Source: Alphaproteobacteria bacterium (GTDB taxonomy: Bacteria > Pseudomonadota > Alphaproteobacteria > CALKHQ01). From it: a stretch of DNA of 64,000 nt. This document shows positions 32,388 through 60,818 of this stretch, piece after piece. The stretch covers positions 7,211 to 71,210 of the forward strand of contig JBHJOG010000207.1 of assembly GCA_050329975.1 (NCBI GenBank), given 5' to 3'. Below the pieces are notes generated by a model. The model was not told the origin of the DNA, made no database searches, and saw only the letters and a program-made list of their open reading frames with translations. Both the position numbers and the translations under genes were made by a program. Positions within the stretch are counted from its first letter, which is position 1. Every line of letters starts with the position of its first letter.

Positions 32388-32407
32388 CCACTGATTATTA
32401 TCAGTGG
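32388..32407. promoter_or_regulatory. Perfect palindrome CCACTGAT-TATT-ATCAGTGG in AT-rich region ~200 bp upstream of cheA; candidate operator
   Basis: Read directly from the sequence. A further CAGTGG copy sits at 32421-32426. Confidence 0.4.
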
Positions 32408-32602
32408 ACTGGCTGTTTCTCAGTGGAATTTTCTCCTATTGTCGCGGATTCTTCCTAAATGTTTCGCTGAGCGCCGCCCAGCGGCCTTTACAGCTTTTTT
32501 ATCATTTTCCCAGAGGATCGCAGCCTGACAACCGGCGATCTCCGGTGGTGCCGTTCCAAAGGCACTCGGTCCGCAACGCGCTGAATCAATGGGTGCTGCA
32601 CG

Positions 32603-35338: not shown

Positions 35339-35373
35339 ACAGGGCCCGCGACCGGGAACAGGTGAAAGAGATC

Positions 35374-35829
35374 ATGAGCGACGCGATGAGCCAGAATTCC
35401 GATTTCGTGACCGTGACGGTGGCCAAGCAGCTGTTCGGCATCCCGGTGCTGAAGGTCCAGGACATCCTGGGTCCGCAGCGGATCACCCGCATCCCGCTGG
35501 CTCCGCCTGAGGTTGCGGGCGCGCTCAACCTCCGCGGTCGCATCGTCACTGCGATCGACGTCCGCAGCCGGCTGCGCCTGCCGCCGCGAGCGGCCGGCGA
35601 CGAGGGCATGGCGGTGGTGGTCGAGCACGACCAGGAGCTTTACAGCCTGCTGATCGACTCGGTCGGCGACGTGCTCAGCCTCTCGGAGAGCAAGTTCGAG
35701 CGCAATCCGACCACGATGGATGCCCTCTGGCGAGAGGTGTCGGTCGGGATCTACCGGCTGAAGGACGAATTGATGATGGTTCTCGATGTCGACCGGCTGT
35801 TGGCGATCGAGAAAGCTATCGCGGCCTGA
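35374..35829 (+). CDS. cheW: Chemotaxis coupling protein CheW
   Basis: A 151-aa CheW-like domain (FVTVTVAKQLFGIPVLKVQDIL...). The track start at 35176 overlaps cheA and was rejected in favour of the ATG at 35374. Confidence 0.85.
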   Translation: MSDAMSQNSDFVTVTVAKQLFGIPVLKVQDILGPQRITRIPLAPPEVAGALNLRGRIVTAIDVRSRLRLPPRAAGDEGMAVVVEHDQELYSLLIDSVGDVLSLSESKFERNPTTMDALWREVSVGIYRLKDELMMVLDVDRLLAIEKAIAA

Positions 35830-35904
35830 CCGCCGCGACTTGTTTCAATGGCGGCGCCCGGCTTCGTTCGGGCCCGCGCCGAGCGCCACGGAGCCAGTGA
35901 GCCA

Positions 35905-36267
35905 ATGCGGTGTCTTATCGTCGACGATTCCAAGGTGATCCGGGCGGTCACGCGCAAGATCATGGAGGAGCTGTCCTTCGAAACAGTCGAGGCCGCGGAC
36001 GGCGCGGAGGCGATCGACCGCTGCAAGGAACAGATGCCTGACGCGATTTTGCTCGACTGGAACATGCCCCGCGTCGACGGACTCGAGTTCCTCGGCATGC
36101 TGCGCCAGATGGACGGCGGCCAGACACCGATCGTCGTGTTCTGCACCTCCGAGAACGCGATCGACAAGATCGACTCCGCACTCAAATCGGGTGCGAACGA
36201 GTACATCATGAAGCCGTTCGACAGCGAGATCATCCAGTCAAAGCTGCAGCAAGTCGGGTTGATCTGA
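35905..36267 (+). CDS. cheY: Chemotaxis response regulator CheY
   Basis: A 120-aa single REC domain (MRCLIVDDSKVIR...AILLDWNMPRVDGLEFL...MKPF). Confidence 0.85.
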   Translation: MRCLIVDDSKVIRAVTRKIMEELSFETVEAADGAEAIDRCKEQMPDAILLDWNMPRVDGLEFLGMLRQMDGGQTPIVVFCTSENAIDKIDSALKSGANEYIMKPFDSEIIQSKLQQVGLI

Positions 36268-37448
36268 TGACGCCGGAGCCCCTCATCCGCTCCACGGCCG
36301 CCGCCGCGCCCGCGGGCGAACGGACCCGGGTACTTCTGGTCGACGACTCCACGGTCTACCGAAGCCTGGTCCGCCGCGAACTGGTGAAGTGCCCCGACAT
36401 CGAGATCGTCGGCAGCTGCGGCGACGGCAAGTCGGCGATCCGCGCGGTCCAGGCAACCGCTGCCGATGTGGTCGTGCTCGACATCGAGATGCCGATCATG
36501 GATGGGCTTACGGCGTTGCCCCAGTTGATCGCCGCGCGGCCGTCGGTGAAGGTGATCATGGCGTCGACCCTGACGGTGCGCAATGCCGATATCAGCATGC
36601 GCGCGCTGCAGATGGGCGCCGCGGAAACGGTCGCCAAGCCCACCACCGCCAATCTTACCAACGACGCCGACCGGTTCATCCAGGAGCTGATCCGCAAGAT
36701 CCGCGCCCTCGGCGAGGCGGCGCGCCGCAGCGAGAGCCGGCTGGCGCGTCGCGCTGCGCCGGCCGTCCCGGGAGAGGCGGCGCCCGCGCGCCGGCCGGGT
36801 CCATCAAGCGGGCCGGCCGCGGCCGCACCGATCGAGATCAGCCTTCGCCCTGCGCCGACGCGCGCGCCCGAGCTGATCGCCATCGGCAGTTCCACCGGGG
36901 GGCCGAAGGCGCTGATGTCGATGCTGACGGACCTGGTGAAGTCGGTGAAGACGCCGATCATCGTCACCCAGCACATGCCGGCGACGTTCACCGCCATCCT
37001 GGCCGAGCATATCGCGCGTGCGACCGGCCGGCCCACGGTCGAGGCGACCGAAGGCATGACGCTCGAGCCGGAGCGGATCTACGTCGCCCCCGGCGACTAC
37101 CACATGACCGTCCGGCGCGAATCGCGGACGCTGGTGAAACTGCATCTCGACCAGAACCCGCCGGAGAACTTCTGCCGTCCGTCGGTGGACCCGATGCTGC
37201 GGTCCGTGGCGACCTGCTACGGTGCCACGGTGCTCGCGATCATCCTGACCGGCATGGGGCAGGACGGCGCGCAGGGCGCCAAGGCGCTGGTCGCCGCCGG
37301 CGGAGCCGTGGTCGCCCAGGATCAGGCGACCAGCGTGGTCTGGGGCATGCCCCAGGCGGCGGCGAAAGCCGGCGTCTGCAGCGCAGTGCTCCCGCTGGAC
37401 GAGATAGCTCCCTATGTAAGCAGGCTTGCAATGAGGCACGCGGCATGA
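36267..37448 (+). CDS. cheB: Chemotaxis protein-glutamate methylesterase CheB
   Basis: REC domain plus methylesterase domain (LIAIGSSTGGPKAL...VTQHMPATFT...GMGQDGAQG). There is a 1-nt TGATGA overlap with the cheY stop. Confidence 0.9.
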   Translation: MTPEPLIRSTAAAAPAGERTRVLLVDDSTVYRSLVRRELVKCPDIEIVGSCGDGKSAIRAVQATAADVVVLDIEMPIMDGLTALPQLIAARPSVKVIMASTLTVRNADISMRALQMGAAETVAKPTTANLTNDADRFIQELIRKIRALGEAARRSESRLARRAAPAVPGEAAPARRPGPSSGPAAAAPIEISLRPAPTRAPELIAIGSSTGGPKALMSMLTDLVKSVKTPIIVTQHMPATFTAILAEHIARATGRPTVEATEGMTLEPERIYVAPGDYHMTVRRESRTLVKLHLDQNPPENFCRPSVDPMLRSVATCYGATVLAIILTGMGQDGAQGAKALVAAGGAVVAQDQATSVVWGMPQAAAKAGVCSAVLPLDEIAPYVSRLAMRHAA

Positions 37449-38423: not shown

Positions 38424-39188
38424 TCAGCCGGCGTGGGCGAAGGATACGTAGCCGTCGTCGTCGTGGCCGACCGGGACGCCGGCACCGGCCGGGCGTCGCT
38501 CGCCGCCTTCGGCCTGGGGATCGCGCAGTACATAGCCGCGGCCCCAGACGGTCTCGATGTAGTTGGAGCCGCCGGTGGCGGTCGACAGCTTCTTGCGCAG
38601 CTTGCAGACGAACACGTCGATGATCTTCAGCTCCGGTTCGTCGATGCCGCCATAGAGGTGGTTGAGGAACATCTCCTTGGTCAGCGTCGTCCCCTTGCGC
38701 AGGCTCAGCAGCTCGAGGATGCCGTATTCCTTGCCGGTCAGGTGCAGCGGCTTGCCCTCGACCTCGACCGTATGGGCGTCGAGGTTCACGGCCAGCTTGC
38801 CGGTGCGGATGACGGATTCGGCGTGGCCCTTGGACCGGCGGATGATGGCGTGGATTCGCGCGATCAGTTCGGCCTTGTCGAAAGGCTTGGTCAGATAGTC
38901 GTCGGCGCCGAAGCCCAGGCCCTTGACCTTGTTGTTCGGCTCGTTGAGGCCGGACAGGATCAGGATTGGAGTCTGCACCCGCGCCGCGCGCAGCCGGCGG
39001 AGCACCTCGTAGCCGTCGATGTCAGGGAGCAGCAGGTCGAGAACGATGATGTCGTAGTCGTAGAGCTTTCCGATCTCCAGGCCATCCTCGCCCAGGTCGG
39101 TCATGTCGACGACAAAGCCTTCGGATTGCAGCATCATCTGGATGCTTCGTGCAATCGGAGTATCGTCTTCTACCAACAAAACCCGCAT
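38424..39188 (-). CDS. ctrA: Cell-cycle/motility master response regulator CtrA (OmpR family)
   Basis: MRVLLVEDD...[23 protein letters not shown]...TPILILSG...[68 protein letters not shown]...[12 protein letters not shown] is near-identical in pattern to Caulobacter CtrA. A ~25-aa C-terminal tail is present. Confidence 0.9.
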
Positions 39189-41205: not shown

Positions 41206-42714
41206 CTACACCGTCACGTCGGGATGCACCTGCTCGGCCCGCACCGCTGGTGCCGTGAGGTCCGGCTGCTCGACGAAGCGAATATGGCCCTTCAGGCCCA
41301 TTGCCGCGATCGTGTCGCCGAACAGCGCCTCGATCTCAGCCCGGGACTCGGCGCCGAATGCGGTGCGACTGATCAGCAGCAGGTCTAGCCGGCCGGTTCC
41401 CGCGAGGCCGTCGAGCCGGACCGGGCCGAGCCTGGAGAATCCGAAGTCGATCTGGAATCGAGCCCGGTCGTCTTCGCCGCCCTCGTCCTGCCCGTCATCG
41501 GGCTCCTGCCATGCAACCCTGAGCGGCTGCCAGCCGTGGGCGGTCGCGATCGGCAGGTAGAGCGCCCGCCAGAGTTCGCTGCCGGCGGAGGCGGCCTCGG
41601 TCTCCAGGCGCGACCCGCGCTGGGAGAGTGCCTCGGCGAGACGCTTGAGCAGGCTGTCGCGTCCCTGTTTCTGCATCGCCTGCTGTGCGTCCTGGCCCAC
41701 CAGGGCACCGACGCCGCCTCCCTGCAAGGCGGCCATCAGGAACAGGGTCGACGACCCCAGCTTGGGGCCCATCCGTGGCAGCCGGGCGTCGACGGCAGCG
41801 GCCAGCGACGGCTGGGCGACGAGCGCCGCCATCATCTCGTCGAGCAAGCCCCCCAGTTGCGCGATCGATGGAGCCGGCGGTCCGACGCTTCGGGCTGTCG
41901 CCAGCACCTCCAGCCGAAGCCTGGCGCCGTCCGGCAGGTCGCCGCGATCCAGCACCAGCGTGCCGTTGGCAAAGTTCAGCACCGGCTGGCCCAGGGCGGC
42001 CCGGCCGCTCACGGTCGCCTCGAACGGTGCCGGCACGGTCAGCGACGGGGGCTGAGCGGTACCCGGCCGGGCGGTTGCCTGGCTTCCGCCCAACAGGGGC
42101 TGGATCGCCGGCTCGATCGCCAGGATCCGCACGGTGACCGTCGTCGGGCCGATGGCGGGAAGAGTGGGGCCGGCCGGCGGCGGTTGCGCTGCGGCGTTCG
42201 ATGGCGCCGTCTGGGCGGCGGGCAACAGTCGCGCCTGCACCACGTCGCCGGCGGCCAGCGTCGGGATGGCATGGCCAGTTGCCGGCGCGGACGCGCCGGC
42301 GGTGCCGGTTGCAGGCTGGGTCTGCGGGGGCAGCAGGCGCACGACTCCCCCGGTATCCACCGCGAGCCGCAGCGAGGCGCCGGGCTCGGTGGTCAGGCCG
42401 GGCGCCGTCACCAGGATTCGTCCCAGCGCCGTCTCCAGGCGAATCGTGTCCGCAGCCTGGGTTGCGACCACCCGCGCCGCGAGCGTCACCGGCGCAGGCA
42501 GGCTGCGCAGATCGACCGAGGATTCGCTGACGGTGACCCGGGTTCCGCTCTCGGCCGTCGTCGACGGCGCCGGTTGCTGCCTGGGCGCTTCCTGGGTCCC
42601 GGTCGCGGTCGAGGGGGACGGGGCTGCCGGCGCCGCCCTGCCGCTCTCGGAAGCCGCAGGCAGAGGCCGCGCGACGACCGCCGTCACCGGGGCGACGACG
42701 GGAACTTCAACCAT
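41206..42714 (-). CDS. Ala/Pro-rich hypothetical protein, last gene of the flhA-flhF-flhG operon
   Basis: The start overlaps the flhG stop by 8 nt. The N-terminal ~250 aa are low-complexity and Pro/Ala/Thr/Gln-rich. The C-terminal ~200 aa are globular (…ALYLPIATAHGWQPLRVAWQEPDD…RFQIDFGFSRLGPVRLDGLAGTGRLDLLLISRTAF…). No recognised family. Confidence 0.5.
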   Translation of the reverse strand: MVEVPVVAPVTAVVARPLPAASESGRAAPAAPSPSTATGTQEAPRQQPAPSTTAESGTRVTVSESSVDLRSLPAPVTLAARVVATQAADTIRLETALGRILVTAPGLTTEPGASLRLAVDTGGVVRLLPPQTQPATGTAGASAPATGHAIPTLAAGDVVQARLLPAAQTAPSNAAAQPPPAGPTLPAIGPTTVTVRILAIEPAIQPLLGGSQATARPGTAQPPSLTVPAPFEATVSGRAALGQPVLNFANGTLVLDRGDLPDGARLRLEVLATARSVGPPAPSIAQLGGLLDEMMAALVAQPSLAAAVDARLPRMGPKLGSSTLFLMAALQGGGVGALVGQDAQQAMQKQGRDSLLKRLAEALSQRGSRLETEAASAGSELWRALYLPIATAHGWQPLRVAWQEPDDGQDEGGEDDRARFQIDFGFSRLGPVRLDGLAGTGRLDLLLISRTAFGAESRAEIEALFGDTIAAMGLKGHIRFVEQPDLTAPAVRAEQVHPDVTV

Positions 42715-43513
42715 TTGTCCGAACCAGCATGTCGCCGATGATGGCGGCGATCGCCTCCACGTCCGCGCCTGCCGGCGAGCCGGGGTGGCAGGTCAGGGTC
42801 GGCGTCTGCCGCCGAATGCTGTCCTTGACCCGGGAATCACGCCGGACAATGCCGAGCAGCGGCGGGCTGAACTTGAGGAAGGATTCGCAGGCGCGTCGCA
42901 TTGCGCCGTAGGTGCGCTCGCCCTCCTTGAGGCTGTCGGCCATGTTGACCACGATCTCGAAGCTGAGCTGCGGGTAGCGCGCGCGGGCGACCTTGATGAA
43001 GGCGTAGCCGTCGGTGAGCGAGGTCGGCTCGTCGGTGATGAGCACGATGCAGCGGCCGGCAGCGCCCGCCAGCCGCATCACCGAATCCTCAATGCCGGCG
43101 CCGAGATCGAGCACGATCGCGTCGTAGGTCGGAGCCAGATCGAACAGCTCGTCGGTCAACGTTCCCAGCTGGGACTGGCTCATCCGGCCGAGCGCGCCGG
43201 ACCCGGACCGGCCGGCGATCACGTCGAAGCGCCCGTCGCCTGCCTTGCAGATCACGTCGCGCAGCGGCACCCCGTCGATCACGGCGCGCGCTATGTCCTG
43301 GTCCGGCATCAGGCCGAGCTGGACGTCGACATTGGCCAGGCCCATGTCGGCATCGAACAGCAGGGCCCTGCGCCGCTTCAGCCCGAGGGCGTGGGCCAGC
43401 GTCACCGAGAACCAGGTCTTGCCGACCCCGCCCTTGCCGGACGCGACCGCGATGATCCTGCCGGGGGACAGCAACGGCATGGCCTGTGCCCGTTCAGCCG
43501 GTGTCATGCGCAT
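42707..43513 (-). CDS. flhG: MinD/ParA-family flagellar number regulator FlhG (FleN)
   Basis: Deviant Walker A (AVASGKGGVGKT) and a MinD-like body. The start is ambiguous among 43537, 43513 and 43507, each an ATG overlapping the flhF end. Confidence 0.85.
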   Translation of the reverse strand: MRMTPAERAQAMPLLSPGRIIAVASGKGGVGKTWFSVTLAHALGLKRRRALLFDADMGLANVDVQLGLMPDQDIARAVIDGVPLRDVICKAGDGRFDVIAGRSGSGALGRMSQSQLGTLTDELFDLAPTYDAIVLDLGAGIEDSVMRLAGAAGRCIVLITDEPTSLTDGYAFIKVARARYPQLSFEIVVNMADSLKEGERTYGAMRRACESFLKFSPPLLGIVRRDSRVKDSIRRQTPTLTCHPGSPAGADVEAIAAIIGDMLVRTNG

Positions 43514-44541
43514 TGCTCCTCTGATCCGTCGTTCCATCGATGCTCGGCGCTGCCTCCGCTCTTGGTCATCAGCAGGCGGGCGAGGCTGGCCGGGGTCACC
43601 GGCCGAAGGCCGTTGCCGAGGCGCGGCGAGATCCCGACGCCGGAGAGCTTCAGATGGCCGCCATTGCCGCGGACCGCCGCCGCCGTCACCAGGCTGCCGA
43701 GCCGGCGGGCGGCATCGACCCGGCTTATGATGAGATGGGTGGCCCCGATCTCGGCGAAGGCCAGCGCCGTGTCCGCCGCCTCGAGCGGATCGCCGCCTGC
43801 CGGGAGCACCAGCACCCCGTGGCCGCGCACGCCGGCGATCAGGGCTGCGGCACGCGCCATGTCGTCAGGCTCGAACGGGTTGGCGCCGGCGGTGTCGACG
43901 ATGGCGAGCACGGTTCGCCCGGCCGCCTCGTGCGCGGCGCGGCGCGTGCGCCAGCCTGCGGCCAGCGTCGCCGAGTTCTCCGCGCTCTCCACCGCGAGCC
44001 CCATGTGCTTGGCCAGCCCGGCGAGCTGTGCGAGCGCCCCGGTCTTCACCGTGTCCGCCGCCATCAGGTCCACGGCGACCCCGCCCATCATCGCGTGGGC
44101 GGCGAGCTTGGCGGCGGTGGTGGTCTTGCCGGCACCGGGCGGACCCACCAGCACGATCGGGCGCAGGCTGGGCCGGAACGGGGCGCCGCCGAAGCGCAGC
44201 CGCGTCTCGAACAAGGCCGCCATCGCCATCTCCGGCTGCAGGTCGCGGTGAGCGGCCGCGCCGGCGACGAACTGGCGGGCCAGGGCCTCCGGCACCCCAT
44301 GGCCGGCGAGCGCAGTGCCGATGACCTCCTCGACCGACGGACCCGCAGGCGCCGTCGGGAGGGTCTCGAAGTCCTCCTCGTCGTCGTAGCCGGGCGCCGG
44401 CGGCTCGCAGGCCGCGATCACCTTGACCATGCCGTCGCGACGGCTCTCGCTGGAGACGATGATCGCATCGTCCCCCATCTCCTCGCGGATCAGCCCCAGC
44501 GCCTGGGGCATGTCCTGGGCGATGTAGGTCTTGATCCGCAT
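43504..44541 (-). CDS. flhF: Flagellar biosynthesis SRP-type GTPase FlhF
   Basis: The N-terminus MRIKTYIAQDMPQALGLIREEMGDDAIIVS is typical of FlhF. It has the GTPase G1 (LVGPPGAGKTTT), G3 (DTAG) and G4 motifs. Confidence 0.85.
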   Translation of the reverse strand: MRIKTYIAQDMPQALGLIREEMGDDAIIVSSESRRDGMVKVIAACEPPAPGYDDEEDFETLPTAPAGPSVEEVIGTALAGHGVPEALARQFVAGAAAHRDLQPEMAMAALFETRLRFGGAPFRPSLRPIVLVGPPGAGKTTTAAKLAAHAMMGGVAVDLMAADTVKTGALAQLAGLAKHMGLAVESAENSATLAAGWRTRRAAHEAAGRTVLAIVDTAGANPFEPDDMARAAALIAGVRGHGVLVLPAGGDPLEAADTALAFAEIGATHLIISRVDAARRLGSLVTAAAVRGNGGHLKLSGVGISPRLGNGLRPVTPASLARLLMTKSGGSAEHRWNDGSEEQCA

Positions 44542-46714: not shown

Positions 46715-48097
<1,383 letters not shown>

Positions 48098-51990: not shown

Positions 51991-52143
51991 GACCCTGCAT
52001 CTCCCCGGTTACAGGAGGCTTGGGCACGTCCATCCAGGGACTCTGGTCCGGCCGTACCCTCGCGTCACCGAGACGCTAGGGCCGACGTGCTGAACAACAG
52101 GTTAAGCGGGGGCAGATTTTGCCTAGCAGGCGGCAAATCTTGC

Positions 52144-52443
52144 TCAGCCGAGATGCGGGCGGTTGTCGACGTTTTCCCGGTAGTCCTGCAGCCGGGTGGT
52201 GCGAAGGCCCCGCATGCCGTGGCGCTCGATCAGACGCTGCCAGGACAGGAATTCCTCGACCGACAGGCGGTAACGCTTGCAGGCATCTTCGAGGCTGATC
52301 AGGCCCGAGCGGACACCGGCGACGACCTGCGCCTTTCGCTTGATCACCCAACGCTTCGTGTTGGGCGGCGGTAGATCATCGACGCTGGATGGAGCCCCGA
52401 CCGAGTCGAGGATCGCGTCGTCGAAGCCTTTGGTTGTGTCCAT
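52144..52443 (-). CDS. DUF1153-family small protein (putative HTH DNA-binding) within flagellar cluster
   Basis: MDTTKGFDD...RWVIKRKAQVVAGVRSGLISLEDACKRYRLSVEEFLSWQRLIERHGMRGLRTTRLQDYR matches my recollection of the DUF1153 family pattern. The Arg-poor upstream extension in the track was rejected. Confidence 0.55.
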   Translation of the reverse strand: MDTTKGFDDAILDSVGAPSSVDDLPPPNTKRWVIKRKAQVVAGVRSGLISLEDACKRYRLSVEEFLSWQRLIERHGMRGLRTTRLQDYRENVDNRPHLG

Positions 52444-52545
52444 GGTTGGTCCCGCCGAAATCGACAACTTCCTGTTGCTGGACCCAAGGCTAGGCTCGCC
52501 GGCTTTATAAACCCCTAAAATCGAGGGATTCGCATTGCACATCAT

Positions 52546-52564
52546 ATGGTTAATCATGGAATTC
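52546..52564 (-). promoter_or_regulatory. CtrA-box-like motif (minus strand GAAT-N7-TTAACCAT) ~90 nt upstream of the DUF1153 gene
   Basis: It contains the canonical TTAACCAT half-site in an AT-rich intergenic stretch. The first half-site is degenerate. Confidence 0.35.
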
Positions 52565-52637
52565 CGCTCAAATTGCACCGACGGGACCAGGGTGACCCGG
52601 TCCCGTTGGCGGAACGTCGATGCTTCAGCCATTACCC

Positions 52638-53996
52638 TTAGCGTTTCAGGCGGATAAGCTCATCCAGCATCTCGTCGCTGGTGGTGATGATGCGCGCGTT
52701 TGCCGAATAGGCGCGCTGGGTGATGATCATGCTGGTGAACTCCTCGGCGAGGTCGACGTTCGAGGCTTCGAGCGATGCCGAGGAGATCTTGCCCGCGCCG
52801 GCGGTGTTGGCCTGCAGCAGCAGGTACTCGCCCGAGTCCGCGGTCTGCGCATAGGCGTTGCCGGTCCGCGACTGCAGCCCGTTCGGGTTGTTGAAGGTGG
52901 CAAGCGGCAACTTGTAGATCTTCTTGCGGCTGCCGTTGTCGAAGAACGCGGTGACGATGCCGTCCTTGTCGATCGACACGCCGGAATAGGTGCCGAACGG
53001 CAGGCCGTTCTGCTCCAGCGTCTTGGGCGTGTACGGCCCGTCGAGGAAGGTCATGCCGCTGGCCGCGCCATAGGTGCCGAGCGCGAGCGACATCTGATTG
53101 CTGGCGACATCGCCCAGCTCGCCGCCCGAGCCGGTGAAGTTGAATGCCTGCGTGCCTCCCGGATTGAAGTTGAGCGTCATCGACACCGGGCCGGTTCCGC
53201 CCGTCGGGGTGCCGTTGGTCGCGAAGTCGAGGGTTCCGATCACCATGTAGTTGGTATCCGACAGTGCCGCCGCGGGCGTCGCGTCGGTCGTGTCGGAGTC
53301 GTAGGTGGCCGAGGCGACGCCATCGCTGGTGCGGGTCATGCCGGTGACACGCGCCTCCCATTGGTTGGTGCCGTTGTAGTGCCAGGTCAGTTCGACATCG
53401 TGCGGCACGCCCAGCGAGTCGTAGATCGTCACGTTGGTCGTCTCGGTCTGACCGACCGTCGCGGTAGCGGGCAGGTTGGCGCCGATCTGGATCTCGGTGG
53501 TCCGCTCCGCCAGCGTCGACAGCCCGGCCACGTTGACCGTCTCGAGCGCCGATATCGAGCTCGTGTTGCTCGGCAGGGCTTCGTTCGCGTCGAGCGGCCA
53601 CCCTTGCAGGTAGAACCCACCCGCGTTGACGAAATTGCCGTCCGAGTCGACCGTGAACGAGCCTTCACGCGAGAACAGGAATTCGTTGCCCGTGCCACCG
53701 TTCGGCCCTTCGTTGACGACAAAGAAGCCGGAGCCGTCGATGGCAAGGTCGGTCGGCGAACTCGAGCCCTGCAGCAGACCCTGCTGGTCGATGAGGCGCA
53801 GGGGCAGGGCGGCGACGCCGCCCGGGGTATAGCCGGAATTTGTCGAGGACTGGGTGACCAGGGTCGAGAATCGTGCCCGCGATCCCTTGTAGCCGATCGT
53901 GTTCACGTTGGAGATGTTGTCGGCGATCATGCCGAGGTTCTGGCTGTTTGCGGCAAGACCCGAAACGCCTGACGTCATCGCGCCGTAAATGCTCAT
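52638..53996 (-). CDS. flgE: Flagellar hook protein FlgE
   Basis: N-terminal MSIYGAMTSGVSGLAANSQNLGMIADNISNVNTIGYK and C-terminal ...NVDLAEEFTSMIITQRAYSANARIITTSDEMLDELIRL are rod/hook conserved termini. Confidence 0.9.
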   Translation of the reverse strand: MSIYGAMTSGVSGLAANSQNLGMIADNISNVNTIGYKGSRARFSTLVTQSSTNSGYTPGGVAALPLRLIDQQGLLQGSSSPTDLAIDGSGFFVVNEGPNGGTGNEFLFSREGSFTVDSDGNFVNAGGFYLQGWPLDANEALPSNTSSISALETVNVAGLSTLAERTTEIQIGANLPATATVGQTETTNVTIYDSLGVPHDVELTWHYNGTNQWEARVTGMTRTSDGVASATYDSDTTDATPAAALSDTNYMVIGTLDFATNGTPTGGTGPVSMTLNFNPGGTQAFNFTGSGGELGDVASNQMSLALGTYGAASGMTFLDGPYTPKTLEQNGLPFGTYSGVSIDKDGIVTAFFDNGSRKKIYKLPLATFNNPNGLQSRTGNAYAQTADSGEYLLLQANTAGAGKISSASLEASNVDLAEEFTSMIITQRAYSANARIITTSDEMLDELIRLKR

Positions 53997-54776: not shown

Positions 54777-56261
54777 CTATACGAAGAGGTCGACGACCAG
54801 GTGGCTGTCGCTCTGGTGTGTGATGATCATGCCGTCGACGGCCTCGCCGCCCTCCGGCTCGGACTCGCTCTCGGCATCGCGGCCGCTTCGCTTCGCGTCG
54901 TCCTGGTCGCCGGGGCTCTGCTGACGCAAAGAGAAGCTCAGGTCGCCGGCGCTGGTGTCGAACCCGGCGTCGGCCAGGGCGCGCTCGAGGTCGCGGACGT
55001 TGCGCTGCAGCTGGTCGAGCGTCTCCTGGCGGTCGGCAGCGACGGTCATCGTCATCCGCCCGTCCTGCCCGAGCTCCATGCGGACGTCGATCCGGCCGAG
55101 TTCGCGCGGATTGAGCCGGATTGATACCCGGTCGACTCCGGTCTCGGCCGCATGCGCGATGGTGAGACCGATGCGCTCGGCGAACTGGGGACCGTTCAGC
55201 CGGGGCATGTGCTGGGGCTGCGCAGGCCCGTCGACGCGGGCGGGCTGCGCCGTACGCTCGCCCAGGGCGGCCGCGCCGGGCGTTCCCGATCCGGTCGGCG
55301 CAGGCGGTGCGGATGCTCCCTCGCTGACGGCCGGCAGGCTGCCGGCAGCGGCAGCCGTCGCGGCTGCACCGCGCCCGCCGGCCGGATTGTTGGCCATCGC
55401 GGCTGCGATTGCGCTGAAGTCGGCGGCGGCGCCCTGTTCCTTGCCCAGGCTGGGCTGGCTCTGTTTGCCCAGCGCCTTGGCCGGCGCGTTGCCAGCCATA
55501 ATGCGCTGGCCGGGCGGCATGGCCGTCTGTGGGCCAGGCGCCTGTTGGGTGCCGGCCAGCGAATGCGCGAACAGCGCGACGGCGAGGCCGGGGGCCGGCG
55601 GTCCGGCCGGGCCGGGCTCGGTCCCCGCCGCCGCACCGCGCGACTGCATGACGGCAAGGAGGTTCGCCAGGATGTCGTCGTTGGCGGGCGTGGCTGCGCC
55701 GTCCGCCAGGGAGAGTGCGCCCGGCTGCGCGGCTCCTGGGATCGGGTCGGCGGCACCTGCCTGGCCCGGGGTGGCCCGGTCCGAGGCGGTCTGGCCCGGG
55801 GTGGCCTGATCCGGGGTGGCCTGATCCGGGGCGGTCTGGTCCGGCGCCGCCGGTCCTGTCGTGGCCTGGGCCGGGTCGGCCACGGGTCCGGCGGCGTTGG
55901 GTGTGGCCGGTTCTGCGACCGGCTCGACCTGGGTCTCGGCGGGGGGCGGGGTCTCGGTGGCCTGCGCCGTTGGCAGTGTGACCGGCTCGTCGTGCCGGCG
56001 GTCGTCGCTGCTCTGGCGGGCGGCCCGGTCGACGTGCCGGCGATCGGCGGCGTCGCGCTGTGCATAGTCGCGCGCCGGCTCCGGCCGCTCGCGCTCCGGG
56101 ATGTCCCGGCGGCTCGTCGCGCGGTCGGTGTCGGTACGGCTCTCGCGCGCACTCATCGCGCGGACCAGCTCGTCGAACGGATGTCCCGTCGCCGGCTTGC
56201 CGGCCCGGCCTGGACCCGAGACGTCGAACCGCGGCTGGTCGTCGCGAATGGCTATCTGCAT
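54777..56261 (-). CDS. fliK: Flagellar hook-length control protein FliK
   Basis: The central region is Pro/Ala-rich and repeat-containing. The C-terminal Flg_hook domain is (RVSIRLNPRELGRIDVRMELGQDGRMTMTVAADRQETLDQLQRNVRDLERALADAGF). It sits directly upstream of flgD. Confidence 0.75.
   Translation of the reverse strand: MQIAIRDDQPRFDVSGPGRAGKPATGHPFDELVRAMSARESRTDTDRATSRRDIPERERPEPARDYAQRDAADRRHVDRAARQSSDDRRHDEPVTLPTAQATETPPPAETQVEPVAEPATPNAAGPVADPAQATTGPAAPDQTAPDQATPDQATPGQTASDRATPGQAGAADPIPGAAQPGALSLADGAATPANDDILANLLAVMQSRGAAAGTEPGPAGPPAPGLAVALFAHSLAGTQQAPGPQTAMPPGQRIMAGNAPAKALGKQSQPSLGKEQGAAADFSAIAAAMANNPAGGRGAAATAAAAGSLPAVSEGASAPPAPTGSGTPGAAALGERTAQPARVDGPAQPQHMPRLNGPQFAERIGLTIAHAAETGVDRVSIRLNPRELGRIDVRMELGQDGRMTMTVAADRQETLDQLQRNVRDLERALADAGFDTSAGDLSFSLRQQSPGDQDDAKRSGRDAESESEPEGGEAVDGMIITHQSDSHLVVDLFV
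55757..55850. repeat. In-frame 15-bp tandem repeat inside fliK encoding (A/T)PDQ(A/T) pentapeptide repeats
   Basis: The DNA CCGGGGTGGCCTGAT is repeated, and the protein reads APDQTAPDQATPDQATPGQTASDRATPGQ. Confidence 0.7.
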
Positions 56262-56430
56262 CGCCTGTTCCCTAAGCTACCTTGCCAGCCAGGCTTCGCA
56301 AGCCGCGGGCCATCGCAGAGGTCAGGGTGATGTCCTTGATATCACGAGATTTTTGCGCGAGCACCGCGCAGCGCCGGGACCCTGCCTGCCAAGGGTTGCC
56401 GGGTGGGCCCGGCAACTGTTGCCGGTAGGA

Positions 56431-56462
56431 AAGAAAAAACGCCGCTGAGGGGTCAGCGGCGT
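56431..56462 (-). terminator. Rho-independent terminator downstream of flaF
   Basis: The minus-strand sequence reads GCCGCTGA-CCCC-TCAGCGGC followed by GTTTTTTCTTT. Confidence 0.75.
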
Positions 56463-56493
56463 CGTGGGCAGGCGCGGGGAAGGGAGGAAGCGG

Positions 56494-56928
56494 TCAGGCG
56501 ACGAACCGGTTGGCCATCGGTGCCGTGGAGGCCGGCTGGGCAGGCGCGGCGACCGTGCCGTCGGTCCGCTGGCCGGAAAGGCCCAGCGCGATGTTGCGGT
56601 TGATGTCAATCAGCACCTGCAGGCGCTCCGGCGCCACCCTGCCGAGGGCCGACACGGTATGGCGGTCGACGAACCCGGCCAGGCTCAGCATGTTCTGCTT
56701 GATCTCGGGCGGCAGCGGATTGCTGTCCTCGGCGATGTCGGCCTGAAACAGCGTCCACAACCGCCAGTTCAGCCTGAGCGCGCTGCGATACTGCTCGATG
56801 TCGGCATCGGCGCGCTGCACCGCATCCAGTCGGCGGGCGGCTTCCAGCAGCGCCCGAGATTCGGTTTCGCGCGGATTGGACCCGAGTTTCTGCGCCTGCT
56901 GGTAGGGGTTGTTACGCGGAGCCGGCAT
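56494..56928 (-). CDS. flaF: Flagellin synthesis regulator FlaF
   Basis: MPAPRNNPYQQAQKLG...ESRALLEAARRLDAVQ...LRLNWRLWTLFQADI is a FlaF-family pattern. It is adjacent to flbT. Confidence 0.8.
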   Translation of the reverse strand: MPAPRNNPYQQAQKLGSNPRETESRALLEAARRLDAVQRADADIEQYRSALRLNWRLWTLFQADIAEDSNPLPPEIKQNMLSLAGFVDRHTVSALGRVAPERLQVLIDINRNIALGLSGQRTDGTVAAPAQPASTAPMANRFVA

Positions 56929-57307
56929 AGTTCAGCACCTCTTGCTCATACCTGATCAGGTTGCGGCACTTCTTGAGTGCGCCGTAGCTGTCGCCGGCGA
57001 TCATCTGCTGGCCGATCTCCAGCAGGAGCGTCGTCGAGCTCGGAACCGCCTGGGCGAACTGTTGCAGGAAGCTGTTAAAGTTCTCTTGATGATCCCGCAC
57101 ATGTTCGGGAAACAGGTGCATCATCTGGACCGTGAAGTAGATCCGCTTCGCTGGCGTGTCGGCGCGCTCTTCGGTGATGATGTCCTTCTCGCGCAGGATG
57201 TTGGCGCGGTTCTGCAGGACGAACTGGGCGCGGTCGCCGCCGTTTACGATGACGGCGCCGTTGATGATGATCTTTTCGCCCGCCTTCAGTGAGATCTTCA
57301 GAGCCAT
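56912..57307 (-). CDS. flbT: Flagellin translation regulator FlbT
   Basis: MALKISLKAGEKIIINGAVIVNGGDRAQFVLQNRANILREKDII is a FlbT signature. The 51-aa Arg/Pro-rich track extension was rejected. It overlaps the flaF start by 17 nt. Confidence 0.85.
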   Translation of the reverse strand: MALKISLKAGEKIIINGAVIVNGGDRAQFVLQNRANILREKDIITEERADTPAKRIYFTVQMMHLFPEHVRDHQENFNSFLQQFAQAVPSSTTLLLEIGQQMIAGDSYGALKKCRNLIRYEQEVLNYAGSA

Positions 57308-57371
57308 GGGTCGGGTGCCTTCTGCACGGGCCGGCGCAGGGCCGGCGGCTTCAGATGTCGTGTGAGGGAGC

Positions 57372-58199
57372 CTAACCGAACAGCTGCAGCACGTTGCGCT
57401 CATTCTGGGCGGAGAGCGAAAGCGCGTTGGTGGCCAGCTGCTGCCGGGTCTGCAGGGCAAGCAGGTTGGCGCTTTCCTCGTTCATGTCGGCGAGCGTCAG
57501 CTTGCCCGCACCCTGCTCGAGGGTGTTGACCAGGCTCTGGGTGAAGCTCAGGCGCGTCTTCAGCACCGTGTTGTTCGAGCCCAGCGCCGCGGCATTTGTC
57601 CGCAACTCGATCAGGGCCGCATTCACCGAACTCAGCGCCGCGTCGACGTCGCCCTCGCTGCCCCAGTTGTTCGTCGCCGTGCCGATCGAGAGCCCGCCCG
57701 CGCTCGACGTCGACCGCAGGTGGGCGATCGTCAGCTTGGATGTGCCGTCCTCGTTGAAATCTACGGTCAGCGTGTCGGAGCCGCCGTCGATCAGGTTGAC
57801 GCCGTTGTAGCTGGCGTCCCGGGCGAGGTCGTTGAGCTGGGTCAGCAGCTCGGTGAACTGGTGGGCCAGCCCGGAGCGCTCCGCCGCGCTGCCCGAAGAC
57901 TTCGCCTTGGTCGCCAGGCCCTTGGCCTGCTCGACCAGGTCGGTGATCGACTCGATGCCGTCGATGGCGGCCTGGATCGTGCTGATCGCCTGGTCGACGT
58001 TGTCCTTCAGTCGGCCCAGATCGCCGGCCCGGTCGCTGAGCGCCCGCGACTGGAAATAGGCGGTCGGGTCGTCCAGTGCGGAACTGACCTTGAGCCCGGT
58101 CGCCAGACGGTTCTGCGTCGTGTTGACCAGGTCCGAGGTGCGCTGAAGCGTCAGCAGGTTGTCACGTACGATCTGGGAAAGAGCAATCTTGGCTGCCAT
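57372..58199 (-). CDS. Flagellin (short, 275 aa)
   Basis: The conserved flagellin N-terminus is MAAKIALSQIVRDNLLTLQRTSDLVNTTQNRLATGLKVSSALDDPTAYF. The C-terminus is ...LLALQTRQQLATNALSLSAQNERNVLQLF. A GGAGGATGAA Shine-Dalgarno is present. The track start at 58280 was rejected. Confidence 0.9.
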   Translation of the reverse strand: MAAKIALSQIVRDNLLTLQRTSDLVNTTQNRLATGLKVSSALDDPTAYFQSRALSDRAGDLGRLKDNVDQAISTIQAAIDGIESITDLVEQAKGLATKAKSSGSAAERSGLAHQFTELLTQLNDLARDASYNGVNLIDGGSDTLTVDFNEDGTSKLTIAHLRSTSSAGGLSIGTATNNWGSEGDVDAALSSVNAALIELRTNAAALGSNNTVLKTRLSFTQSLVNTLEQGAGKLTLADMNEESANLLALQTRQQLATNALSLSAQNERNVLQLFG

Positions 58200-58320
58200 T
58201 TCATCCTCCGGTGTCGCCATGCGCTGCTGACATTCTGCAGCGCGTTGGTGTTCAGCTTTCTGCTCCGGTTGGCGTCGCAACCGGACAGGTCGTCACGGCA
58301 TTGCCGCAACAGGTTCGGTA

Positions 58321-58336
58321 AGGTTAACGGCAACCG
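58321..58336 (-). promoter_or_regulatory. Sigma-54 (-24/-12) promoter TGGCAC-GCCGG-TTGC for the downstream flagellin gene
   Basis: The match to TGGCAC-N5-TTGC is exact on the minus strand. The predicted TSS is ~110 nt upstream of the flagellin ATG. flbD is in the window. Confidence 0.7.
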
Positions 58337-58581
58337 GCGTGCCAACACGTGCACCGGCCCCGGAGGAGCGGCGAGTGCATCTGTTGAATCCGAGATGTAT
58401 CAGTGGTTTAGCCGAACTCTCCGGTGGAGCGGAGGCTGGCCGCGACAGGGTAAAGGCCGCACTGGGCGCCGTGGCCGGGGGAAAACTCTGCCGGCCGATG
58501 GCAATTCGTGCCGGGACATATCGGTCGCGTCGGCGACCCGAGGGCTCATGCGGCCCGGCCTGCGGCGAGGTCGTCGCGGGC

Positions 58582-58610
58582 AAAAAAAATGGCGGGGCCG
58601 AAGCCCCGCC
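58582..58610 (-). terminator. Rho-independent terminator after the upstream flagellin copy
   Basis: The minus-strand sequence reads GGCGGGGC-TTCG-GCCCCGCC followed by ATTTTTTTTG, 30 nt after the stop. Confidence 0.85.
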
Positions 58611-58638
58611 AGATCGCGATCGAAGGTTCTTGGTTCGG

Positions 58639-59466
58639 TTAGCCGAGGAGCCCCAGCACCGACCGCTCGGACTGTGCCGACAACGCAAGGGCGTTGGTGG
58701 ACAGCTGCTGGCGGGTCTGCAGCGCGAGCAAGTTCGCGCTTTCCTCGTTCAGGTCGGCGAGCGTCAGCTTGCCGGCGCCGCTCTGCAGCGTGTTGACCAT
58801 CTTGGAGGTGAACTCCAAGCGGGTCTGCAGGACGGCGTTGTTGGAACCGAGCGTGGACGCGTTGGTCCGCAGTTCGGTCAGCGCAGCGTTGACTGAGCTC
58901 AGGGCCGCGTCGACGTCGCCGTCGGACGCGAAGTTGCCCGTAGCGCCGGCGATCGAGAGTCCGCCGGCACTGGCGTTCGACCTCATGTGCGCGATCGTCA
59001 GCCGCGAGGTTCCGTCCTCGTTGAAGTCGACCGTCAACTCGTCGTCGCCGCCGTCGATCAGGTTGACGCCGTTGTAGCTCGAGTCCCTCGCCAGGTCGTT
59101 GATCTGGGTCAGGATGTCATCGAACTGCGAGGCCAGGCTCGACCGCTCGGTGGCGTCACCGGACGACTTCGCCTTGGTCGCCAGACCCTTCGCCTGCTCG
59201 ACCAGACTCGTGATGCCCTCGATACCGTCGATGGCTGCACCGATCGTGCTGACCGCCTGGTCGATATTCGACTTCAGCGTGTTGAGGTCGCCGGCGCGGT
59301 CGGTCAGGCTCTTTGCCTGGAAGAACGCAGAGGCGTCGTCCAGAGCGGACGAAACCTTCAGGCCGGTGGCAAGGCGGTTCTGGGTAGTGTTGATCAGGCT
59401 CGCCGTGCCGGTCAGGGTCAGCAGGTTGTTGCGTACCGGTGCTGAGAGAGCAATGCTAGCAGCCAT
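58639..59466 (-). CDS. Flagellin (short, 275 aa), paralogue of the 57372..58199 product
   Basis: MAASIALSAPVRNNLLTLTGTASLINTTQNRLATGLKVSSALDDASAFF... The termini are highly similar to the first copy, and the central region diverges. Confidence 0.9.
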   Translation of the reverse strand: MAASIALSAPVRNNLLTLTGTASLINTTQNRLATGLKVSSALDDASAFFQAKSLTDRAGDLNTLKSNIDQAVSTIGAAIDGIEGITSLVEQAKGLATKAKSSGDATERSSLASQFDDILTQINDLARDSSYNGVNLIDGGDDELTVDFNEDGTSRLTIAHMRSNASAGGLSIAGATGNFASDGDVDAALSSVNAALTELRTNASTLGSNNAVLQTRLEFTSKMVNTLQSGAGKLTLADLNEESANLLALQTRQQLSTNALALSAQSERSVLGLLG

Positions 59467-59626
59467 GTCGTATCCCTTTCTAGGATATTGGCAACGAACG
59501 CATTCTGCATTCGCGTAAGCCAGGTTCTACTTGAACGACGACATTGCCAGACTGGGCCTACGGCGTCGGAACTACCTGTTCCATATGACGTTGGCCTACC
59601 TGGCAAAACGCCGCGTCGAATTGAGA

Positions 59627-59641
59627 GCAACCGCCGTGCCA
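59627..59641 (-). promoter_or_regulatory. Sigma-54 (-24/-12) promoter TGGCAC-GGCGG-TTGC for the second flagellin gene
   Basis: Exact consensus on the minus strand. The predicted leader is ~150 nt. Confidence 0.7.
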
Positions 59642-59907
59642 GACAGTTGGCTCGGATTGAAGTCTTTGATTCCTGTGATATCTGATAGTTAATCGAAGGT
59701 AAAATGGTCAGAGTGCTCGGCAAATGTTGCCGTTGCCGGGGGAAATTTTTGCCGCAGCGGGGAAGAATCTGCCGGATGCATTTTCTTAGGGTAAATCAAT
59801 CCTTGACTATACTGATGTATTTGCGGTTTCTCCGATCTCTCACCAGGTTCGTTGCCGGTCTGACCCTGATGGTGCCTGGAAGGGCCTTGAGTTGCTGACA
59901 GCGGTTG

Positions 59908-59923
59908 CTTGCGTGGATTAGGC
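59908..59923 (+). promoter_or_regulatory. CtrA-box-like motif TTAG-N7-TTAAC ~30 nt upstream of the neuB/pseI-like gene
   Basis: There is a single mismatch to TTAA-N7-TTAAC, and TTAACCAA partially overlaps the TTAACCAT half-site consensus. Confidence 0.35.
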
Positions 59924-59954
59924 TCCCGTTAACCAACATCGGTGTCGATAGGGC

Positions 59955-60818
59955 ATGGTCCAGTTCATCGCCGAGATATCCAGCAACCATGCCCGCGATC
60001 CGGGCCGCTGCGCCGCACTGATCGCGGCGGCCGCAGCGGCCGGCTGCGACGCGGTCAAGTTCCAGCTCTTCCGGGTCGACGCGTTGTTCGCGCCGGAAAT
60101 CCTCGCCCGCAGCGCCGAGCATCGCCGGCGGAAGGACTGGGAGCTGCCGGTCGAGCTGATCCCGCAACTCGCGGCGCAGGCGCGGGATCGAGGAATGGCC
60201 TTCGGCTGCACGCCCTTCGACCTCGATGCCGTCGAGGCGTTGCGCGCGCATGTGGATTTTCTGAAGGTCGCTTCCTATGAGCTGATCTGGCGTGACCTCA
60301 TCGCGGCCTGCGCGCGCACCGGGCTGCCGACCATCCTGTCCACCGGCATGGCCACCCTCGAAGAGGCGGTCGCCGCGGTCGCCGGCGCGCGCGAAGACGG
60401 CGCGGGCGACCTCACGGTCCTGCACTGCGTTTCGAGCTACCCGACGCCGCCCGCCCAATGCAACCTGGCGGCCATGGCCACCATCGCGCGCGCCTGCGGC
60501 GTACCGGTGGGCTGGTCCGACCACAGCCGATCGCCCGAGGTGGTGCTGCGCGCAGTCCATCGCTGGAATGCGGCAATGGTCGAGTTCCACCTCGACCTCG
60601 ATGGATCCGGCGCCGAGTACGCCCCGGGCCATTGCTGGCTGCCCGAGGAGATCGCGCCGGTGATTGCCGCCTGTCGCCAGGGGGCGGTGCTCGACGGCGA
60701 CGGCAAGAAGGCGCCGCAGCCCTGCGAGCTGGCCGATCGGGACTGGCGGGCGGACCCCGTCGACGGCCTCCGGCCGCTGCTGGCAACCCGCGCCCGGTGG
60801 CTGGAGGAGGCATCGTGA
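59955..60818 (+). CDS. neuB: Nonulosonic acid (sialic/pseudaminic/legionaminic acid) synthase family protein (NeuB/PseI-like), short form without obvious SAF domain
   Basis: FIAEISSNHARDPGRCAALIAAAAAAGCDAVKFQLF...FLKVASYELIW...TILSTGMATLEE...LHCVSSYPTPP fits NeuB family motifs (IAEIGxNHxG; KFQ; hCvS.YP). Confidence 0.8.
   Translation: MVQFIAEISSNHARDPGRCAALIAAAAAAGCDAVKFQLFRVDALFAPEILARSAEHRRRKDWELPVELIPQLAAQARDRGMAFGCTPFDLDAVEALRAHVDFLKVASYELIWRDLIAACARTGLPTILSTGMATLEEAVAAVAGAREDGAGDLTVLHCVSSYPTPPAQCNLAAMATIARACGVPVGWSDHSRSPEVVLRAVHRWNAAMVEFHLDLDGSGAEYAPGHCWLPEEIAPVIAACRQGAVLDGDGKKAPQPCELADRDWRADPVDGLRPLLATRARWLEEAS

Follow-up and report, generated by a model that had tools for sequence, protein, structure and literature searches.

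How are the two tandem flagellin genes of an uncultured alphaproteobacterium switched on, and what acts on the long leaders of their mRNAs? The question is raised by a 64-kb stretch of DNA (contig JBHJOG010000207.1, positions 7,211 to 71,210; hereafter, the window), in which the flagellin genes fla1 and fla2 lie directly upstream of flbT and flaF. The original prediction assigned to each flagellin gene an exact TGGCAC-N5-TTGC promoter of the sigma-54 type and a leader that FlbT and FlaF would target. The analysis presented here makes it probable that the two motifs are RpoN -24/-12 promoters and form the last tier of a Caulobacter-type hierarchy together with FlbD, CtrA/SciP, and FlbT/FlaF. 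It also uncovers a conserved RNA element at the end of the flagellin leaders, which we tentatively connect with FlbT.

Sigma-54 promoters of fla1 and fla2

On the two strands of the window, TGGCAC-N5-TTGC has only two exact matches, TGGCACGGCGGTTGC upstream of fla1 and TGGCACGCCGGTTGC upstream of fla2, where 0.10 would be expected from dinucleotide-preserving shuffles; none of 100 such shuffles contained two. The claim that each of the tandem flagellin genes carries its own exact element is thus borne out. The position originally given for the fla1 element (59627-59641) was also correct, while that for the fla2 element (58321-58336) was shifted by ~8-9 nt; the match lies at 58344-58330, with a T directly 5' of it at 58345. 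Each match lies outside coding sequence and in the sense orientation of its flagellin gene (the minus strand), with the GG and the GC exactly 10 nt apart. The distance from the C of the GC to the ATG is 161 nt for fla1 (ATG at 59466) and 131 nt for fla2 (ATG at 58199). With the transcription start site (TSS) placed ~11-12 nt downstream of the GC, the predicted leaders are ~149 nt (fla1) and ~119 nt (fla2) long, within the 110-150 nt that had been anticipated. An intrinsic terminator follows fla1 and, therefore, fla2 needs a promoter of its own. Consensus scans revealed no convincing sigma-70-like or sigma-28-like promoter upstream of either gene.

A position weight matrix (PWM) for sigma-54 sites was applied to the 300-nt regions upstream of ~53 genes. 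It ranks fla1 first (18.8), followed by fla2 (15.7), fliK (11.0), and the next gene at 8.5. Compared with mononucleotide shuffles, this simple matrix is not discriminating (mean shuffle maximum 14.5), and we relied instead on the exact-pattern shuffles discussed above and on conservation. A search of a genome collection with fla1 gave 74 loci, all from metagenome-assembled genomes (MAGs) except L062 and L066 (Insolitispirillum). Their labels are mostly Alphaproteobacteria or Rhodospirillaceae; the best flagellin is 82% identical to fla1 and most are 45-68% identical, while the fla1 protein itself has an identical copy in MAG GCA_964505755.1. In a first scan with one flagellin gene per locus, 36 of the 74 upstream regions score 14 or higher, and none of the antisense and in-gene controls does. 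The close set, defined as loci with a flagellin at least ~56% identical to fla1 (L001-L039, L050, and L054), comprises 41 loci with 67 flagellin genes. All 67 have a strong sense-strand -24/-12 element, 67-186 nt before the ATG, which together with the two genes in the window makes 69 of 69. The distant flagellins found in the same search lack the element, and some have promoters that look like the sigma-28 type. As fla1 and fla2 are paralogues, their two promoter sites are not fully independent. The remaining upstream sequence has, however, diverged between them, while the element itself is retained in every relative examined. Over 23 nt, TGGCACGCCGGTTGCCGTTAACC, the fla2 promoter matches that of the first L018 flagellin copy without a single difference.

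The regions further upstream point in the same direction. Alignment of the fla1 and fla2 upstream regions gives a common block, CGGCAnAnnTTTTCCCCCGGCnACGGC, which across the 69 promoters resolves into a GGCAA-N3-TTGCC palindrome. Allowing up to two mismatches, 66 of the 69 promoters have at least one copy and 45 have at least two, 70-140 nt upstream of the -24 element. The density is 1.87 per 150 nt in these regions vs 0.17 in the loci overall, that is, about tenfold higher. Within the window, palindromes with up to one mismatch number eight (1.83 expected), seven of which are situated at fla1, fla2, fliK, and fliF. Upstream of fla1, neighbouring palindrome centres are spaced by 20-22 nt (about -110, -132, and -152); the two upstream of fla2 are separated by 20 nt, at about -168 and -188. 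A site resembling the IHF consensus is positioned between enhancer and promoter at fla1. The strict consensus, WATCAANNNNTTR, is present at 13 of the 69 promoters and a relaxed version at 25 (background 0.007 per 80 nt), and the matches in the relatives always begin at one of two distances from the -24 T, 26-30 or 39-40 nt upstream. In this layout, palindromes, IHF-like site, and -24/-12 element are arranged as is typical for sigma-54 promoters that depend on an enhancer-binding protein. Conservation at the 69 flagellin promoters, the enhancer palindromes, and the presence of an FlbD orthologue with the GAFTGA motif (see below) together uphold the proposal that the motifs are sigma-54 promoters.

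At fla2 the -12 TTGC is directly followed by TTAACC (58327-58322). The same holds for many of the class B promoters described below (copy-1 promoters, L003-L019), where the sequence reads TTGCCGTTAACC or TTGCCATTAACC. This conserved sequence falls on the predicted start site and looks like a CtrA half-site.

A conserved RNA module in the flagellin leaders

In right-aligned leaders, the conserved part is the last ~50 nt. This module begins with a hairpin that has a variable stem and the loop AGAAU (or AGAAG, AGAAC). After 8-14 nt it continues with UCCUAGAAnRGGA(G), and the AUG is located ~8-12 nt further on. The second part, UCCUAGAAnGGGA, folds over the ribosome-binding site (RBS). RNAalifold applied to 30 leaders predicts both hairpins. 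In hairpin 1, compensatory changes are present in five of the seven pairs and 94% of the cells are paired; none of 500 shuffles reached as high a value and slid controls collapse. A first helix 2, drawn by hand, was one column off (45% paired) and was discarded; the correct register comes from RNAalifold.

A covariance model built from the 30 leader sequences was used to search 634 kb. It gave 63 hits; 29 of these were not part of the training set, and 28 of the 29 end precisely at the ATG of a flagellin gene. The fla1 module scores 55 bits and that of fla2 13 bits, a weak hit that likewise ends at the ATG. The enlarged alignment shows compensatory changes in 8 of 11 pairs, a count that leans towards structure because this alignment was fitted to the model. 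A set of loci chosen independently with FlgE (344 kb, see below) gave eight hits, all at the 5' ends of flagellin genes. The corresponding flagellins share 38-41% identity with fla1, and flbT-flaF follows their genes. TGGCAC-N5-TTGCT in the FlgE loci with the module is separated from the ATG by only 58-60 nt; little of the leader lies outside the module. Because distant relatives keep the module in such short leaders, what is conserved is the module rather than the length of the leader. In the window, the 5' two-thirds of each leader are lineage-specific though structured; for instance, the fla1 hairpin GGAAC-AGGUA-GUUCC corresponds to GGGGC-AGGUA-GCCCC in L001. The fla2 leader retains a hairpin (58243-58221) with AGAAU on the 5' side of its loop, and CCGGAGGA replaces UCCUAGAA.

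Two lineages of flagellin leaders can be distinguished. The relatives usually have the class B copy, with its GCCAGAAAGGA-type leader, in first place, then the class A copy, which has the full module, and then flbT and flaF. In the window, the fla1 leader belongs to class A and the fla2 promoter to class B, as the identity with L018 over 23 nt indicates. Thus, both lineages are represented in reversed order, an assignment with which the protein identities agree only marginally. Both lineages use sigma-54, and within the window neither fla1 nor fla2 has a CtrA-type promoter of its own of the FljJ kind.

The module is also present in loci that lack sigma-54 promoters, most of which have flbT-flaF directly after the flagellin genes. 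Among the MAG contigs labelled Eisenbacteria or Thermodesulfovibrionales, six (L049, L051-L053, L055, and L059) have flagellin-flbT-flaF cassettes with the module. Their flagellins are ~50% identical to fla1, and the Eisenbacteria loci carry a sigma-28-like CTCAAGTTT...CCGAAG upstream. These cassettes reflect either horizontal transfer or mis-binned contigs. The second flagellin gene in L055 (~5570-5626) has AGGA instead of AGAA in both module positions (CCGGCAAGGACUGCCGG ... CCUUAGGAAAAGGAG). Hence, one locus holds a CsrA-like AGGA version beside the AGAA version.

What might read this module? In Caulobacter, FlbT acts on the flagellin 5' untranslated region (UTR), and transcription of the flagellin genes depends on RpoN and FlbD (PMC3930126). 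Moreover, translation is repressed jointly by FlbT and the flagellin FljJ (PMC7591256). We tentatively propose that FlbT, or an FlbT-flagellin complex, uses the module as its RNA operator and that the module represents an undescribed cis-regulatory RNA family. A search of positions 56000-60200 against Rfam 15 at E <= 1 revealed no family matching either leader, and the only matches seen were sub-threshold ones to SorX/SorY, on the fla1 terminator. The two AGAA-type loops suggest, by analogy with the layout of CsrA on hag, a dimeric or bipartite reader.

It might be argued that the sigma-54 promoters are real and that the module is a general translation or stability element with no role as an FlbT operator, e.g., an RBS-sequestering hairpin that sets the translation rate, an RNase-protective stem-loop, or a site for another RNA-binding protein or a small RNA. 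The invariant hairpin 2 overlaps the RBS, as expected for any translation-tuning element, and some loci with the module (e.g., L062, L064, and L069) have no flbT in the fetched flanks. The combination of a hairpin-loop site and an RBS site also resembles the flagellin leaders bound by CsrA, and the L055 flagellin with AGGA twice fits this picture. Yet tblastn with E. coli CsrA detected no homologue in the window or in any locus, and the hairpin 1 loop AGAAU lacks the GGA core of CsrA sites, which led us to reject a CsrA-binding leader. The mechanism and the RNA target of FlbT are called unresolved in a review (PMC4347634), which also leaves room for a general element. On the other hand, no factor other than FlbT has been reported to target flagellin 5' UTRs in this group (PMC3930126), and the module tracks flagellins beside flbT-flaF across differing taxonomic labels and promoter types. 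We therefore regard a general element as rather unlikely. The expectation that the long leaders are targets of FlbT/FlaF is consequently met in part: the majority of the loci examined have a conserved, covarying module at their flagellin genes, mostly together with flbT-flaF, and this module would be a candidate for FlbT binding, while the length of the leaders is not conserved.

FlbD, CtrA, and the hook and fliF promoters

As stated in the original prediction, the window encodes an FlbD-like sigma-54 activator together with FlbT and FlaF; all three are identified by family matches (Table 1). FlbD has the Walker A motif GESGTGK and, at residue 195, the sigma-54 contact motif GAFTGA. Its receiver domain is degenerate, as the N-terminal acidic pair is missing and Pfam Response_reg scores 19.8 bits against a cut-off of 30.2. 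No other sigma-54 activator is encoded in the window, and flbD lies within the flagellar cluster. The genes for FlgD, FlgE, FliF, FliG, FlhA, FliI, and FliJ were also identified, as was fliK (56261-54777). A FliN open reading frame (ORF) and one further ORF are located between fliG and flbD on the minus strand. The resulting order, fliK-flgD-flgE-sciP-fliF-fliG-x-fliN-flbD-flhA, is one which we take to be that of the Caulobacter hook/fliF cluster.

The original prediction found no comparable sigma-54 element upstream of fliK-flgD-flgE. This has to be revised. Upstream of fliK, which has the third-best upstream score in the window, TGGCCC-N5-TTGC is present with two palindromes 75-110 nt upstream of it, and the preceding operon is closed by a terminator after flaF. 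The motif match by itself is weak evidence since TGGC-N7-TTGC is over-represented (see below), and fliK lies outside the flanks of the relatives retrieved with fla1. Hence, 80 metagenome loci were retrieved with FlgE. The order fliK-flgD-flgE-sciP-fliF is conserved among them, and a sigma-54 site just before fliK is present in 18 of 27 related loci under a strict ORF rule. This number is a lower bound, as the in-frame rule missed promoters just within over-extended ORFs; with sites inside such ORFs, the count rises to ~23 of 27. The sites in the relatives often read TGGCCC-N5-TTGCT with one to three palindromes, and the L082 core is identical to TGGCCCGCGGCTTGC. Because the site is conserved before fliK in the relatives, fliK-flgD-flgE is probably also sigma-54-dependent (class III).

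In contrast, and in agreement with the original prediction, fliF has no sigma-54 element upstream (best PWM score 0.3). Instead, two palindromes directly abut a CtrA-type box, TTAACCTGTTGTTCA, that deviates by one mismatch from TTAA-N7-TTAA. In related sciP-fliF spacers, a palindrome is present in 27 of 27 and a CtrA-like box in 25 of 27; in most of the latter, the distance from the start of the last palindrome to that of the box is 17-19 nt, as it is in the window. Since this spacing is fixed, the conserved junction of palindrome and CtrA box suggests direct competition between FlbD and CtrA as a switch from early to late transcription. Across the window, CtrA-type boxes with up to one mismatch number seven (0.37 expected), and the divergent ctrA/fliI spacer has boxes at 39284, 39321, and 39357. 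Together with the presence of ctrA and sciP and the conserved spacing at fliF, this sustains the earlier view of CtrA as a candidate regulator in the case of fliF. In Caulobacter, fliF is activated by CtrA and repressed by FlbD through ftr4 (PMC3930126, PMC4083442).

Which protein, then, binds the palindromes? We infer that FlbD does, at sites such as GGCAACATTTGCC. Some other alphaproteobacteria use activators of the FleQ/FleT type, and an activator different from the FlbD of the window could in principle drive the sigma-54 promoters and bind the palindromes, whose cognate protein is here assigned by inference. Genomes often encode ~ten sigma-54 activators (PMC9977809). We consider this improbable: FlbD is the sole such activator in the window and lies inside the flagellar cluster, the only promoters of the window with palindromes are flagellar ones, including that of the operon that contains flbD itself, and the arrangement at fliF mirrors the repression by Caulobacter FlbD through ftr4 (PMC3930126). 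That the flagellin motifs are chance matches or duplication relics, with the genes transcribed from other promoters, is for practical purposes excluded by the sequence evidence, because the element is conserved at 69 of 69 promoters of flagellins 56-82% identical while the flanks diverge, the antisense and in-gene controls never score 14, enhancer and IHF-like site lie at the expected distances, and no alternative promoter motif was found in the scans, even though fla1 and fla2 are paralogous, the simple PWM scores high in shuffled sequence, and the loose pattern TGGC-N7-TTGC is over-represented in the GC-rich window (12 copies vs 2.2 expected from shuffles). The copies of this loose pattern are mostly intragenic and probably reflect a codon or composition effect, and the motif by itself is an unsafe basis for calling weak sigma-54 sites.

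Several features of the neighbourhood deserve mention. The terminator scan between fla2 and flbT (64 nt, 57308-57371) detected none, and this gap holds a hairpin, GCCGGCCCUGCGCCGGC, with no T tract; fla2-flbT-flaF may thus be transcribed as a unit from the sigma-54 promoter. L035 has a further sigma-54-like site, TGGCATGTAATATGCT (position 1639), between the flagellin gene and flbT. The sciP start is only 5 nt after the flgE stop (52632-52638), and the order flgE-sciP-fliF recurs in 27 related loci (L076-L143). Hence, sciP may be read through from the sigma-54 hook promoter, which, if true, would constitute a feedback in which late transcription produces the CtrA inhibitor.

A gene for a NeuB-family synthase (59955-60818, plus strand) is divergent from fla1 and is followed by a cytidylyltransferase/glycosyltransferase ORF (region to 62629). 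A 723-amino-acid ORF listed from 60458 overlaps neuB; its true start is probably ~60815. A CtrA-type box, TTAACGGGAGCCTAA (minus strand, 59918-59932), lies 23-37 nt before the neuB ATG. Because neuB adjoins fla1 and has this box upstream, glycosylation of flagellin with nonulosonic acid under CtrA control is suggested; CtrA control has been reported for Caulobacter neuB (PMC7591256). Downstream of fliI-fliJ (41255-44251, plus strand), three ORFs of 101, 136, and 705 amino acids have no Pfam or NCBIfam match and may, from their location, encode lineage-specific flagellar proteins. Genes for a ChpT-like histidine phosphotransferase (below NCBIfam cut-offs), a CheA-receiver hybrid kinase, and CheB (31630-37448) adjoin the flagellar cluster. 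Thus, parts of the CtrA phosphorelay and chemotaxis genes are linked to it.

Table 1. Coordinates of genes and predicted regulatory features in the window
Feature	Coordinates	Strand	Remarks
fla1 sigma-54 promoter TGGCACGGCGGTTGC	59627..59641	-	-24 GG / -12 GC; exact consensus; top PWM score in window; predicted TSS ~59616
fla2 sigma-54 promoter TGGCACGCCGGTTGC	58330..58344	-	exact consensus; predicted TSS ~58319
fla1 enhancer, three palindromes	59719..59773		59719-59731 perfect; 59741-59753 1 mismatch; 59761-59773 3 mismatches
fla2 enhancer, two palindromes	58480..58512		58500-58512 GGCACGAATTGCC 1 mismatch; 58480-58492 2 mismatches
fla1 IHF-like site AATCAAAGACTTC	59659..59671	-	1 mismatch to WATCAANNNNTTR; between enhancer and promoter; starts 30 nt upstream of -24 T
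Predicted fla1 leader, ~149 nt	59467..59616	-	minimum free energy -63.2 kcal/mol; z = -3.37 vs shuffles
fla1 leader module, 53 nt	59464..59516	-	hairpin 1 CGAAUGC-AGAAU-GCGUUCG (59513-59495); hairpin 2 UAUCCU-AGAAA-GGGAUA (59487-59471) over Shine-Dalgarno; AUG
Predicted fla2 leader, ~119 nt	58200..58319	-	fold z = -1.96; hairpin GCGCUGC-AGAAUGUCA-GCAGCGC (58243-58221); Shine-Dalgarno GGAGGA (58209-58204)
fla1	58639..59466	-	275-amino-acid flagellin; class A leader; Pfam Flagellin_N + Flagellin_C
Intrinsic terminator after fla1	58580..58611	-	9-bp GC-rich stem, then T8 (58611-58590); fla1 monocistronic
fla2	57372..58199	-	275-amino-acid flagellin paralogue; class B-type promoter/leader; Pfam Flagellin_N + Flagellin_C
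flbT	56912..57307	-	Pfam FlbT 141 bits; below NCBIfam cut-offs
flaF	56494..56928	-	Pfam + NCBIfam FlaF, both above cut-offs
Intrinsic terminator after flaF	56438..56463	-	closes operon preceding fliK
fliK enhancer, two palindromes	56388..56423		56411-56423 perfect (inside CCGGCAACAGTTGCCGG); 56388-56400 1 mismatch
fliK sigma-54 promoter TGGCCCGCGGCTTGCG	56297..56312	-	core TGGCCCGCGGCTTGC, TGGCCC-N5-TTGC, 56312-56298; GC 36 nt before fliK ATG (56261); predicted TSS ~56287
sciP	52144..52632	-	CtrA inhibitor, DUF1153 protein; NCBIfam SciP 123 bits vs cut-off 100
fliF promoter region	52091..52144	-	palindromes 52144-52132 and 52123-52111, then CtrA-type box TTAACCTGTTGTTCA 52105-52091
flbD	46715..48097	-	sigma-54 enhancer-binding protein; NCBIfam FlbD equivalog 766 bits vs cut-off 750
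ctrA	38424..39188	-	NCBIfam CtrA 419 bits vs cut-off 350

Proposed hierarchy and its relation to known systems

The features discussed above can be combined into a model of a four-tier hierarchy of the Caulobacter type. CtrA, checked by SciP, would turn on the early fliF-fliG-...-fliN-flbD operon from the CtrA-box promoter. FlbD produced from this operon would bind the palindromes ~100-190 nt upstream of the predicted starts of the three sigma-54 promoters, and an IHF-type bend, at least at fla1, would bring it to the promoter. With ATP, it would then open all three promoters, that of the hook operon, which has a short leader, and those of the long-leader genes fla1 and fla2. At the palindromes abutting the fliF CtrA box, FlbD would most likely shut off the early promoter. 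The flagellin mRNAs are predicted to begin ~149 and ~119 nt before the ATG, and their leaders would end in the AGAAU hairpin and UCCUAGAAnGGGA over the RBS. Through this module, FlbT/FlaF would control flagellin translation. In Caulobacter, FlbT works with a flagellin co-repressor, and FlaF is a secretion chaperone.

A number of observations weigh against parts of this model. Neither rpoN nor fliX was recognised in the 64-kb window. The fla2 enhancer is more distant than that of fla1 (-168 and -188), and the region upstream of fla2 has no IHF-like site. With 13 bits, the fla2 leader is a poor match to the module and lacks UCCUAGAA. Hairpin 2 is almost invariant, such that its structure, unlike its sequence, is barely tested by covariation. 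The palindrome may correspond to the Caulobacter ftr element, whose consensus, C-CGGC--AAA--GC-G, fits CCCGGCAAnnnTTGCCG; this equation is tentative. FlbT of Brucella has been reported to be an activator, which makes the direction of the FlbT effect uncertain (PMC4347634). Finally, the co-repressor step may differ, because FljJ is CtrA-dependent in Caulobacter (PMC7591256) and both flagellin genes of the window have sigma-54 promoters.

The resemblance to Caulobacter crescentus class III/IV regulation is nevertheless extensive. There, transcription from class III/IV promoters requires sigma-54 as well as IHF, with FlbD under the control of FliX (PMC3096577; for the known hierarchy, see also PMC9812332). 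The window likewise has sigma-54 sites at the hook operon and at the flagellin genes (fljK/fljL in Caulobacter), and its FlbD has a degenerate receiver, which matches the report for Caulobacter FlbD (PMC3096577). The enhancer palindromes ~100 nt upstream and the FlbD-type sites at a probably CtrA-dependent fliF promoter are further shared features, and an IHF-like site is present at fla1, though not at fla2. Moreover, ctrA, sciP, flbT, and flaF are all present (PMC3930126, PMC3096577, PMC4083442). Unlike in Caulobacter, the two tandem flagellin genes of the window lie directly upstream of flbT-flaF and both have sigma-54 promoters, whereas FljJ is CtrA-dependent (PMC7591256). The leaders are longer (~119-149 nt), no fliX was recognised in the window, and the organism is an uncultured alphaproteobacterium whose relatives are labelled Rhodospirillaceae or Alphaproteobacteria. 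FlbD as a flagellar class II regulator is known outside Caulobacterales, in the FlbD/FliX systems of Bradyrhizobium diazoefficiens (subpolar flagellum) and Rhodospirillum centenum (polar flagellum) (PMC2890560; Dardis et al. 2021, cited in PMC9977809). The soil-metagenome loci L085-L150, which have compact leaders and no taxonomic label, may belong to Bradyrhizobium/Rhodospirillum-like groups.

At the level of RNA, the FlbT/FlaF pair has been called analogous to CsrA-FliW (PMC4894983). As for CsrA-FliW at Bacillus subtilis hag and Campylobacter jejuni flaA, where translation is released upon flagellin export, the leaders discussed here combine a hairpin-loop site with an RBS site, and the proposed logic of control is shared as well. 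The loop differs (AGAAU vs GGA), csrA was not found in the window or the loci, and FlbT and FlaF belong to other Pfam families than CsrA and FliW. The module is also similar to cis-regulatory families in Rfam in being a 5' UTR element with a covarying hairpin, although it has no match there.

The promoter scheme is already known from Caulobacter, and to find it in a new, uncultured lineage and in dozens of MAGs is unsurprising. Its extension to this lineage aids annotation and regulon prediction. In this context, GGCAA-N3-TTGCC marks all three sigma-54 flagellar promoters and fliF, which should make FlbD regulons predictable from sequence. Less expected is the conserved RNA element in the flagellin leaders, which may be a target of FlbT; its 53 nt in fla1 provide a short candidate for the FlbT target that has been described as unresolved (PMC4347634).

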